Shown piece after piece: positions 18,369-23,114 of a DNA stretch of 64,000 nt; position 1 is the stretch's first letter; every line of letters starts with the position of its first letter. Location: the sequence record PQ303785.1. One strand, 5' to 3'. The notes under the pieces were generated by a model, which ran no database searches, was not told where the DNA came from, and saw only the letters and a list, made by a program, of their open reading frames with translations. A program made the position numbers and the translations under genes. Source of the DNA: Escherichia phage LYE-01.

Positions 18369-19025
18369 TTATTTAGCCCTTCCTAATATTCTGGCCGCCT
18401 GAGAACATATTGATTCAAGGCGGTCATTACTTATATGATCATTTCTATACCAGTACATGGTTATCGTTCCAGCATAGATATTATCCAAATTAAAATATGG
18501 ACAACTGTACATGTAGTTTATTTCGGGAGTAGGCTTTTTAGTTGGTAAAAAAGCAAATTTTGAGTTGGAATAATAATGACGTCCATTTAAATGAACTGTA
18601 TATTCATCCATAGTTTTATCAACAGGATATCCTCCAAGTGATTTTTCGCTTATTGTTGAAGGTAATTTTCCTTCATATGCTATAATATCAACAAAATAGT
18701 TTAAGTTTTTAGGGCGGAAAGAATACACCGCACTAAAGTCTGCCTCAGATGATATATGAACTATCTGGAGTTGTTCCAGGGCGACAGATTCAAAGCGTGC
18801 ATTTCTTTCCTTTTCAATAATTTCACTGTATGTTTCATACTTTGATTGCTTATAGTACTCAAAGAAACTATCTCCCCTATACCAAACAATCGCCATTATA
18901 AACAAAAGAATTACGACAGCTACTCGGGAAGCAAGAACCTTCCCGGTAGCGTTATCTTTGAACAAGCGATCTAGAACACCCAACAGAATATCAGAGGGCG
19001 AAAATGATATTCTAGGTGCTGCCAT
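18369..19025 (-). CDS. t: holin T
   Basis: 218 aa, MAAPRISFSPSDILLGVLDRLF with one N-terminal transmembrane segment. Confidence 0.9.
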   Translation of the reverse strand: MAAPRISFSPSDILLGVLDRLFKDNATGKVLASRVAVVILLFIMAIVWYRGDSFFEYYKQSKYETYSEIIEKERNARFESVALEQLQIVHISSEADFSAVYSFRPKNLNYFVDIIAYEGKLPSTISEKSLGGYPVDKTMDEYTVHLNGRHYYSNSKFAFLPTKKPTPEINYMYSCPYFNLDNIYAGTITMYWYRNDHISNDRLESICSQAARILGRAK

Positions 19026-19835: not shown

Positions 19836-19850
19836 AATTTATACTCCAAA

Positions 19851-19865
19851 GGGGGCATTTCCCCC
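19851..19865 (-). other. GC hairpin between genes 37 and 38
   Basis: GGGGG-CATTT-CCCCC in the 36-nt spacer. Confidence 0.4.
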
Positions 19866-19871
19866 TTGTTG

Positions 19872-22800
19872 TTAGAATTTAAAATATTTACTAATTTTGC
19901 GAGCAATTTTAGTAAAGAGAGGCGTTTTCAATTCTTTAATTTCTTCACTCATTTCCTGAATAGCCTTAATTAAAAGAGCATTCACTGTAGAGTTAGAAAT
20001 TGTTAAAATCTCTTCTGGGTTATCAAGAGATCCGACATTAGAAGTGCTAACAGCTTCCGGTAAAATTTCTTGTAAATCCTGCGCGATAATACCAATCTCA
20101 TGTGCGATGACTTCTCGGTCAGAAAGAGACTTAACTTTATCGTAGGTTTTAACTTTTAGTTTATTTACCTTATCTACCGCATTTTCTTCGTAGTCTTCAA
20201 CGTTAATTTTCAGACGACGGTCGGAACGAATATAAACATCGTTACAGTAAACCGACGCACTAGATGTGAAATCGCCATTTGCAGCCCATGAATACCAGCC
20301 GCCTTTGTTCATATGCATCATTACGGTAGCTTGACCACCGCCAGCATGAACACCCATTGCCGCAAGATGATCAACACCCCAATGAGTTGCTTTCCAAATT
20401 GAATATGCTCGGGTTTGTGAATCCTGACAATCTAAGAGAATACCAGCAGGACGGTTGCGCCAGTCATCCCAAGCACCACCAAAAACATCACCACGGATAA
20501 GAGCGTATTCACTATTATAAGGAACTTGCTCTCCCGCTTTAATCATTGCACCCTGGAAGTGATGACTAAATGAACCCCCATGATTATTTCGTATATGTAA
20601 AATACCCTCATCTGTAGCCCAGATAACAGCCTTTTCTGCATCGCTATCATCTCTAAACCAGATATGGCGAGCACCAGTTGAGTTTTTGATGGTTATTCCG
20701 CTAGGTCCATGCACGGTCAAAGAACCAGCAACATCAAACATCAAACTGTTATCTGTCCTGCGTTCAGCATAGAAGTGATAACCTTTTGAATCGCCGACTT
20801 CCAATACTGCCGCGCGACCAACTTCTGAATTTCCCCAATTGTTGATAGAGAATCGTTCAGAGCTATTATTCATCTGATTTAGGTATAATGTACCATCAGT
20901 GAATGTTTCGCCAAAGAAACGAGTTTTAATTGCACCTGTCGCTAAAGTACGTTCAGTGGAAAAATGGGCGCCTTGACTATCTTCTAACTGGATGATGTTA
21001 TCACGAGCGTTATTGCTATCACCCCAATGGTTAAATTTAAAATAATCTCGTGATCCTAAACGTCCGGCGTCAAAAGTCATCAAGCCTTTCATGTTAATAT
21101 CACCGCCGACCAGAACGTTATCCGGGAAGTTAACTGTACCATCAGCATTAAATCTTGATGTATGGCCCTGTGTTCCATCTTCTTTGATATGGTGTATCAC
21201 GAATGTACCTGAATTAATTTCAGTACCTAAAGACCAAACTGCTTTACCTTGAAGGTATTTTTGCTTAACAATCGGATAATATTTGTTTACAGCATCATCA
21301 TCGATTTCCTGGAAAATAGGAGCCGCTTGAACATATTGAATATCATAACCACCAGCGCCAGCGCCATGACCAACAAATTTAATATAGCCGTTCGCAGCGA
21401 ACGTATTGTAACTTGATTGTAAATCTGGAATAGTAACTTTACCGGTATCTAAAGCCATACTAAACGGGCGAAGTGGACCGATATCGCCATGTTTACCTTC
21501 ACCATAAGCAGTTGGAATAATATGAAGACTGCCTTCTGAACGTCTAAAAATAGCTCCATAATCTGCGTTCCAAATGCGAAGACCATTTACAGCATTTGTC
21601 GCGATTTCACCGGCTGCGCTGATTGTACCGTCAAATGTAGCATTTTTTACTACTGTAAAGTTTTCATTAACAATCTGGGTGCCATTTATAACCGATTCGA
21701 TTTTACCCGCAGTTGTTCGTTGAATATAATGCATCCATCCAATATCATCAGAAATTTCCATGACATTTTTACGGGTGCCTTCACTTGGATTAGTAAAAGT
21801 ATTTCCCCAAACAGCTATATACATGTTATCAACGGAGCTTTGACCCATGGTATAGCCTTTAAACATTAAAGTTGAATTATTATTTCTACCATCAATATTA
21901 ACCGAACCACCAATAACGTCAATATTGCCTGGAGTAACTAACAAACCGCCATGAGTATTAATGTTTGTGGTACCCTTACCGCGGAAATAGTGATGATAGT
22001 TACCGCCTTGATAATATCCTAAAAGAGTTTGACCGTCACCATACGCGTTATTATCATGGTAAGTAACAACAGTGGCTAATGCATAGTTTTCTGTCGGTGG
22101 CGTTGTCATAAGAATCCCATCCGGAGAATAACCCATAACCATTTTTCTAAGGCTTTGTGTTTCCGCAGGACCGTAAATGAAAGTTCTTGTTCCGTTGTTT
22201 ACTGCATGAAAATATCCGTCCTGATGCCATTTAAATCCGGTATCATTATCGCCAATAGCAATAGAACCTTTACCTAAGGCTGAATATGTCATAGGACTTG
22301 ATTCCATACCTACTGCAATTGAATGGCCTGCTTGAAGCCCACCGGAATAAGAAAATGACAACATGTAATCAGTAGGGGTTGAACCAGAATACCAACTGAT
22401 GCCGTTATTTTCACAAATTTCATGGAGCATTGCGGCCGCTGGGTCGGTACGTACAATGCGCAAATAGTTTTTATCTGTGTCAGAATTATTATTTGCTAAT
22501 GAAGATATATCATAATCGCCCGTCTTCTTCCCATCTGTAATAACTTTATCGGTCAGAATTTGTGGAGACGAAATAGATTTCCATGCTGATACTTCAGGTG
22601 AAGTAAATAGGCCACTGCCTGAAAATGCATAGGTGCTTTCATCACCAGCGGCGTAGTCTTGAACCCTGATATTAAGTACTTGTGTAGTTAATCCATCATT
22701 AGCCGGGGCATAAATTATTCCGCGTTCGCGGTTATTGCCATCGAAAAAACGAACATGCGCTGTACCTGAACTTTTTGTAATAAGTTCTCCGCCCTCAGTC

Positions 22801-23114
22801 ATAATCTGCCCGGCGGCAATAATATCGCGAGTTACTCGAGCAATACCAGTTAAATTAAAATTACCTGTCTGAGTGAAAGCGCCATTTAAAGTATAATCAC
22901 CAGTTTGATTATAGTTTCCTATATGAATAACATTCCCGTCAATGCTACCGCCCTTAGCAAAACCAAGATCAATGATATTTCCTTGGTCGTCTTTAGTAAA
23001 AAGTACGCGGTCTTTTAAGTTTATAGCCAATTCACCTTCGGCTAATACTGAAGCGGCAGGACGTGCTCCTGCAGTTTTGCTTCTTTTAAATTGTATTTGT
23101 TTTAAAGTAGCCAT
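19872..23114 (-). CDS. 37: long tail fibre distal subunit gp37
   Basis: 1080 aa; fibre repeats; C-terminal SDRRLK chaperone-like segment. Confidence 0.85.
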   Translation of the reverse strand: MATLKQIQFKRSKTAGARPAASVLAEGELAINLKDRVLFTKDDQGNIIDLGFAKGGSIDGNVIHIGNYNQTGDYTLNGAFTQTGNFNLTGIARVTRDIIAAGQIMTEGGELITKSSGTAHVRFFDGNNRERGIIYAPANDGLTTQVLNIRVQDYAAGDESTYAFSGSGLFTSPEVSAWKSISSPQILTDKVITDGKKTGDYDISSLANNNSDTDKNYLRIVRTDPAAAMLHEICENNGISWYSGSTPTDYMLSFSYSGGLQAGHSIAVGMESSPMTYSALGKGSIAIGDNDTGFKWHQDGYFHAVNNGTRTFIYGPAETQSLRKMVMGYSPDGILMTTPPTENYALATVVTYHDNNAYGDGQTLLGYYQGGNYHHYFRGKGTTNINTHGGLLVTPGNIDVIGGSVNIDGRNNNSTLMFKGYTMGQSSVDNMYIAVWGNTFTNPSEGTRKNVMEISDDIGWMHYIQRTTAGKIESVINGTQIVNENFTVVKNATFDGTISAAGEIATNAVNGLRIWNADYGAIFRRSEGSLHIIPTAYGEGKHGDIGPLRPFSMALDTGKVTIPDLQSSYNTFAANGYIKFVGHGAGAGGYDIQYVQAAPIFQEIDDDAVNKYYPIVKQKYLQGKAVWSLGTEINSGTFVIHHIKEDGTQGHTSRFNADGTVNFPDNVLVGGDINMKGLMTFDAGRLGSRDYFKFNHWGDSNNARDNIIQLEDSQGAHFSTERTLATGAIKTRFFGETFTDGTLYLNQMNNSSERFSINNWGNSEVGRAAVLEVGDSKGYHFYAERRTDNSLMFDVAGSLTVHGPSGITIKNSTGARHIWFRDDSDAEKAVIWATDEGILHIRNNHGGSFSHHFQGAMIKAGEQVPYNSEYALIRGDVFGGAWDDWRNRPAGILLDCQDSQTRAYSIWKATHWGVDHLAAMGVHAGGGQATVMMHMNKGGWYSWAANGDFTSSASVYCNDVYIRSDRRLKINVEDYEENAVDKVNKLKVKTYDKVKSLSDREVIAHEIGIIAQDLQEILPEAVSTSNVGSLDNPEEILTISNSTVNALLIKAIQEMSEEIKELKTPLFTKIARKISKYFKF

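Follow-up and report, generated by a model that had tools for sequence, protein, structure and literature searches.

The C-terminus of the long tail fibre protein gp37 encoded in the analysed window (the whole 64,000-nt stretch of Escherichia phage LYE-01) is a peptidase S74-type intramolecular chaperone domain, an assignment supported by Pfam, by matches to solved structures, by the predicted fold and by conservation of a Ser/Lys pair. We consider it very probable that this S74 chaperone is released by autocleavage, with Ser964 and Lys969 cutting the Arg963-Ser964 bond, and that the product of the neighbouring gene, gp38, docks on the tip exposed in this way. Membership of the family is established by profile, fold and catalytic residues, as is the gene context; the cleavage, the precise bond that is cut and the docking of gp38 are what we infer from homologues that are 36–43% identical within the domain. 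Earlier publications already cover the family and its mechanism, report it in T2-type gp37 and contain an explicit prediction of the cut site for a motif almost the same as this one.

Gene 37 and its genomic context

Between positions 19000 and 23200 (4.2 kb), the DNA of the window was 99.9% identical to that of Enterobacteria phage vB_EcoM_IME340 (Tequatrovirus), in which the matching open reading frame is annotated as 'long tail fiber distal subunit' within the gene order g34-g35-g36-g37-g38-t. On the basis of this synteny, the open reading frame was assigned as gene 37 (Table 1). The motif YIRSDRRLK begins at residue 961 of gp37, in the context ...DVYIR-S964-D-R-R-L-K969..., and 116 residues follow Ser964 to the end of the protein. 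Mapping of Ser964 to its codon therefore showed that positions 19872..20225 correspond exactly to the stretch that starts with the Ser964 codon and ends with the stop codon. The preliminary description had proposed a C-terminal segment of about 115 residues following a YIRS sequence, and this segment is present, with coordinates that proved to be exact. The S-D-x-R-x-K signature that it had recognised is indeed present, and occurs a single time in the six-frame translation (127,996 residues) of the 64-kb window; a chance motif was rejected, given that this unique occurrence lies inside a strong Pfam profile match.

Table 1. Coordinates of gene 37, its predicted maturation products and neighbouring elements in the window.
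Feature	Position	Strand	Basis
Gene 37, long tail fibre distal subunit precursor, 1080 aa + stop	19872..23114	minus	Open reading frame and synteny
Predicted mature gp37, residues 1-963, end ...NDVYIR	20226..23114	minus	Homologue cut sites (PMC4690869, PMC7917993) and alignments
Intramolecular chaperone/peptidase S74 domain, residues 964-1080, 117 aa	19875..20225	minus	Pfam, profile, AlphaFold, Foldseek
Peptidase_S74 profile-matched stretch, residues 964-1022	20049..20225	minus	Pfam
Ser964 codon, predicted catalytic nucleophile, P1', first residue of the released domain	20223..20225	minus	Pfam position 1 and conservation
Asp965 codon	20220..20222	minus	
Lys969 codon, predicted general base of the Ser-Lys dyad (Ser + 5)	20208..20210	minus	Spacing and conservation
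Long C-terminal helix, residues 1041-1077, predicted trimeric coiled coil	19884..19994	minus	DSSP on fragment model
Basic amphipathic tail, residues 1064-1080	19875..19925	minus	
Gp34_trimer match, residues 446-552	21459..21779	minus	Pfam
Gene 37 stop codon	19872..19874	minus	
GC-rich stem-loop between genes 37 and 38	19850..19866	minus	
Gene 38 Shine-Dalgarno, GGAG	19844..19847	minus	
Gene 38, T2/T6/S16-type tail-fibre adhesin, 259 aa	19056..19835	minus	Pfam GP38 E 5e-69, Gp38_N E 1.1e-20

Gene 38 lies directly downstream of gene 37. Over residues 1-145, its product shared 52% identity with T2 gp38; identity to STP4-a gp38 was 49%, and the N-terminal tryptophans Trp9, Trp22 and Trp37 were common to T2 gp38. 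The strand preceding the predicted cut in gp37, DVYIR, is identical in the fPS phages (PMC7917993), STP4-a and LPML1, and reads NVYIR in T2. The presence of a T2/T6-type gp38 gene next to gp37 fits the published model in which chaperone release bares a docking tip, and gp38 is accordingly expected to dock on the tip bared by cleavage (model in PMC7917993 and PMC3157838).

Two further elements were observed in and around gene 37. Inside gp37, residues 446-552 matched the Pfam family Gp34_trimer, the trimerisation domain of the long tail fibre proximal subunit, at 33.4 bits (cut-off 27), which points to a module common to the proximal and distal fibre subunits. Between the gene 37 stop codon and the gene 38 Shine-Dalgarno sequence, we found a GC-rich stem-loop, AGGGGG-AAAUG-CCCCCU; the 61-nt stretch containing it had a minimum free energy of -15.8 kcal/mol (z -2.06). 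In T2, STP4-a and KP15 this place is likewise occupied by a hairpin, which has another stem sequence and a UUCG loop, such that the position is conserved and the sequence is not. The hairpin is probably an intercistronic element of RNA stability or translation, and elements of this kind have long been known in T4.

A peptidase S74-type domain at the gp37 C-terminus

The last 142 residues of gp37 scored 56.9 bits (E 2.7e-15) against PF13884 (Peptidase_S74, "chaperone of endosialidase"), and full-length gp37 scored 53.5 bits, relative to a curated gathering score of 22 bits. Residues 964-1022 aligned with profile positions 1-57 of 58, with Ser964 at position 1. The domain takes up the final 117 residues of the 1080-residue gp37, and likewise ends the open reading frame in all eight of the homologues compared. 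When the single sequence was searched against solved structures, it matched a gp37 construct of Salmonella phage S16 (6F45_A, E 2.1e-10), and also the autocleavage domain of MyRF (7DC3) and a tail fibre (8JOV). A profile built from nine fibres (gp37 of the window, of T2 and of STP4-a, a T5-like pb1, pneumococcal PblB, LPML1, Aeh1, KP15 and a cyanophage) recovered the same three PDB sequences at E 7.3e-27, 3.4e-13 and 1.8e-10, respectively, and additionally the GA-1 neck-appendage chaperone 3GUD (E 2.8e-4). At E <= 0.01, this profile search of PDB sequences missed the chains of T5 pb1 and endoNF; endoNF was reached by fold only (Foldseek), and T5 pb1 is linked only via the pb1 homologue in the alignment.

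Structure prediction gave a consistent picture. A database protein search returned 24 homologue matches, mostly fragments, a set adequate for modelling rather than for broad statistics. While a single-sequence AlphaFold model of gp37 residues 905-1080 was uninformative (pLDDT 39.5), the model used here, a monomer of the 142-aa fragment built on a 22-sequence alignment, reached a pLDDT of 81.4. It consists of a small alpha/beta body, which includes two beta-hairpins, and a single long helix at the end (in fragment numbering H41-47, four strands and H103-139), and the DSSP helix at fragment residues 103-139 equates to gp37 residues 1041-1077. Based on the T5 and MyRF structures (PMC4690869, PMC8326128), we infer a coiled-coil role for this helix. 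The top 11 Foldseek matches in the PDB were exclusively chaperone or autocleavage domains (7DC3, 3GUD and endoNF 3GW6), the best being MyRF 7DC3 (E 2.6e-6, TM 0.62), and the first match beyond these 11 had an E value of only 0.42. The helical tail put forward in the preliminary description thus corresponds to one long helix in the model, and its proposal of an S74-like intramolecular chaperone is upheld by the PF13884 score, the structure matches, the fold and conservation of the dyad.

Among the database homologues, P0002-P0021 were mostly short, partial entries labelled 'tail fiber domain-containing protein' from Salmonella, Shigella and E. coli assemblies, and these are probably T-even phage DNA within bacterial sequencing projects. 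A further match, 'Listeria phage LPML1' (OK283618.1, L006 535..960), has a fibre ending in the sequence context DVYIRSDRRLK, identical at the cut site to the window and 48% identical over the domain. The host on record for LPML1 is Listeria, yet its classification is Ounavirinae; either the module has been exchanged horizontally or the host label is doubtful.

Conservation of the catalytic dyad

The S, D, R and K of the S-D-x-R-x-K motif were invariant across the nine diverse phage fibres, and these four residues were nearly invariant in the 22 database homologues wherever the site was covered. The S-x4-K spacing of Ser964 and Lys969 equals that of the dyads defined by experiment in T5 pb1 (Ser1264/Lys1269), endoNF (S911/K916) and MyRF (S587/K592) (PMC4690869, PMC8326128). 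MyRF and endoNF cannot cleave without the dyad (PMC8326128), and in T5 pb1 the S1264A substitution blocks cleavage (PMC4690869), Ser-to-Ala exchange being known to prevent release of the chaperone.

In endoNF and T5, an upstream arginine contributed by the neighbouring chain (Arg897 and Arg1250, respectively) serves as a folding sensor or oxyanion helper. No obvious counterpart of either was seen in gp37, where Arg963 is the sole arginine in the 25 residues before Ser964. The cleavage trigger may therefore differ, as in MyRF, whose cleavage works without stalk contacts (PMC8326128).

This feature bears on whether the domain cuts itself at all. If a separate phage or host protease removed the C-terminal segment, the resemblance to S74 would reflect a folding module only; the lack of an evident arginine sensor would suit such a scheme, as would the early T2 work, which, as cited in PMC3157838, established processing and not its mechanism. 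Both dyad residues are conserved with canonical spacing, though, and recombinant S16 and T5 fragments self-cleave in E. coli and are blocked by Ser-to-Ala exchange, which makes removal by a separate protease highly improbable. Autoproteolytic release has been shown by experiment for T5 pb1 (PMC4690869) and MyRF (PMC8326128), and also for S16 gp37 (as described in PMC7917993); S16, T5, K1F and phi29 are named as bearers of C-terminal chaperones (PMC7289586).

Position of the predicted cut

The most likely cut lies between Arg963 and Ser964, which would leave a mature C-terminus of ...DVYIR and release 117 residues rather than 116. This expectation follows from T5 pb1, K1F and S16 gp37, in all of which the chain is cut before the serine. 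The scissile bond of T5 pb1 is Thr1263-Ser1264, and the mature fibre lacks density for the serine, which departs together with the chaperone; the K1F tailspike behaves alike (PMC4690869). The S16 gp37 cut, in the closest solved relative, is DLNVS^SDRRIKK, and in fibres with DVYIR^SDGRLKI the predicted cut separates Arg from Ser (PMC7917993).

The preliminary description had stated that such domains cleave after the serine, and accordingly placed the cut between Ser964 and Asp965, so that mature gp37 would end in ...YIRS with the domain otherwise as described here. The phi29 appendage is the only case modelled with the serine retained, and its density is weak (PMC4690869). Set against the T5, K1F and S16 cut sites, and against a PF13884 domain model that itself begins at the serine, a cut after Ser964 is unlikely; the general statement is probably wrong and the specific position probably one residue off. 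The same description had stated that T2 gp37 is trimmed at its C-terminus, and this is in the literature (PMC3157838, citing Drexler et al. 1986). As the P1 residue of the expected Arg963-Ser964 cut is Arg963, tryptic proteomics alone would be unable to confirm the ...DVYIR end.

Proposed maturation of the fibre tip

Given the predicted release of residues 964-1080 after trimerisation, maturation could proceed as follows. The coiled-coil helix and alpha/beta body of residues 964-1080 would put three nascent gp37 chains in register, and the chaperone domain would nucleate folding of the distal fibre tip, starting from the C-terminal end. In the correctly folded trimer, Lys969 would activate Ser964 for attack on the Arg963-Ser964 bond of each chain, and the 117-residue chaperone trimer would leave, such that mature gp37 would end in ...DVYIR. 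The flat, triangular DVYIR tip exposed by this step may then be where gp38 docks by its N-terminal attachment domain, which bears the tryptophans, and the docked adhesin would be the carrier of receptor specificity.

The T4 fibre offers a different arrangement, described as a replacement by lambda-like sequences, in which the tip of gp37 is retained (PMC3157838). Were this phage to follow T4 gp37, the C-terminal segment would stay on the virion as part of a receptor-binding tip and gp38 would act as an assembly chaperone only; T4 itself works in this way, and nothing in the present data speaks for a retained tip. The downstream gp38 is of the adhesin type (GP38 at 5e-69, with Gp38_N) and not the T4 chaperone type, the gp37 C-terminus matches S74 and no receptor-binding tip, and in T5 an uncleaved chaperone blocks receptor binding, so that a retained segment is scarcely credible here. 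A T4-type gp37 tip was accordingly rejected in view of the S74 domain at the C-terminus and the adhesin-type gp38.

The basic C-terminal tail

The only mildly unusual point was the basic tail at residues 1064-1080, which is common to just a subset of homologues. This proline-initiated, amphipathic stretch, TPLFTKIARKISKYFKF, follows the coiled-coil helix. It was found in some homologues only (P0007, P0008), and most aligned homologues were without it; in the alignment it was not present in T2, Aeh1 and KP15, and STP4-a gp37 and the T5-like pb1 have shorter, different extensions. AlphaFold confidence over these residues was low (pLDDT 53-69). The freed chaperone trimer might have a second role via this tail, for which membrane association or control of gp38 loading could be candidates, or, given the missing upstream arginine sensor, cleavage might be triggered differently, with Arg963 at P1 participating; we regard these readings as very unlikely.

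Practical implications

Pfam detects the domain routinely, and the value of the assignment is practical rather than one of discovery. Maturation at ...DVYIR963, if it occurs as predicted, would be useful to know for recombinant fibre expression and virion proteomics, and for host-range engineering by swaps of the gp37 tip or the gp38 adhesin. Judged by its sequence, the phage appears to use receptor recognition of the T2/S16 style, with a separate gp38 adhesin, and not the T4 style.

Comparison with known systems

The S16 gp37 (6F45) resembles gp37 of the window in being a T-even distal long tail fibre with the domain at its extreme C-terminus, in its S-D-R-R-x-K motif and in the polyglycine gp38 adhesin gene downstream. 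According to PMC7917993 (describing Dunne et al. 2018), the last 113 residues of S16 gp37 are a chaperone that autocleaves after trimerisation and bares the gp38 docking surface. The released piece is 113 residues in S16 versus 117 here, the strand before the cut is DLNVS in S16 and DVYIR here, and in gp37 of the window the coiled coil is followed by some 17 additional residues that form a basic tail. The single-sequence match to 6F45 starts 13 residues before Ser964, and no similarity to the S16 shaft was detected further upstream. Almost identical at the cut site are the T4-like Yersinia phages fPS-2, -65 and -90, with DVYIR^SDGRLKI in gp37 compared with DVYIR-SDRRLKI here; for these phages, too, the chain is predicted in print to be cut between Arg and Ser, the chaperone to be released and gp38 to dock, and this is a prediction in both cases (PMC7917993).

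In T2, gp37 (g37 at L002 829..4854) reads NVYIR/SDIRLK and continues into a homologous domain that is 43% identical (tblastn), with 99 residues from the serine to the end and no basic tail, compared with 117 here. The shafts are 31–33% identical and the proteins 1341 and 1080 aa long, respectively. Relative to T2, by sequence comparison, gp37 is strongly mosaic, with a divergent shaft, a closer chaperone and five near-identical residues before the cut. In T2 and T6, gp37 undergoes C-terminal cleavage, after which gp38 caps it (Drexler, Riede and Henning 1986, cited in PMC3157838).

Beyond the T-even phages, endoNF (3GW6), T5 pb1 and the GA-1/phi29 appendage (3GUD), classified as MEROPS S74 or PF13884, likewise have the S-x4-K dyad at the C-terminus of a trimeric fibre or spike. 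The fold is shared with 3GW6 and 3GUD at a Foldseek probability of 0.97–1.00, albeit with an identity of 10–16% in the structural alignments. The carriers differ, being a tailspike (endoNF), a siphovirus side fibre (T5) and a neck appendage (GA-1), no upstream arginine sensor like that of endoNF and T5 was evident in gp37, and what release is expected to bare in gp37 is not a receptor-binding groove but the place where a separate adhesin docks. The best structural match, MyRF 7DC3, is 23–24% identical and has the same Ser-Lys dyad mechanism with activity in the trimer only (PMC8326128); in MyRF the carrier is a eukaryotic membrane-bound transcription factor, and cleavage frees a DNA-binding trimer and not a fibre.
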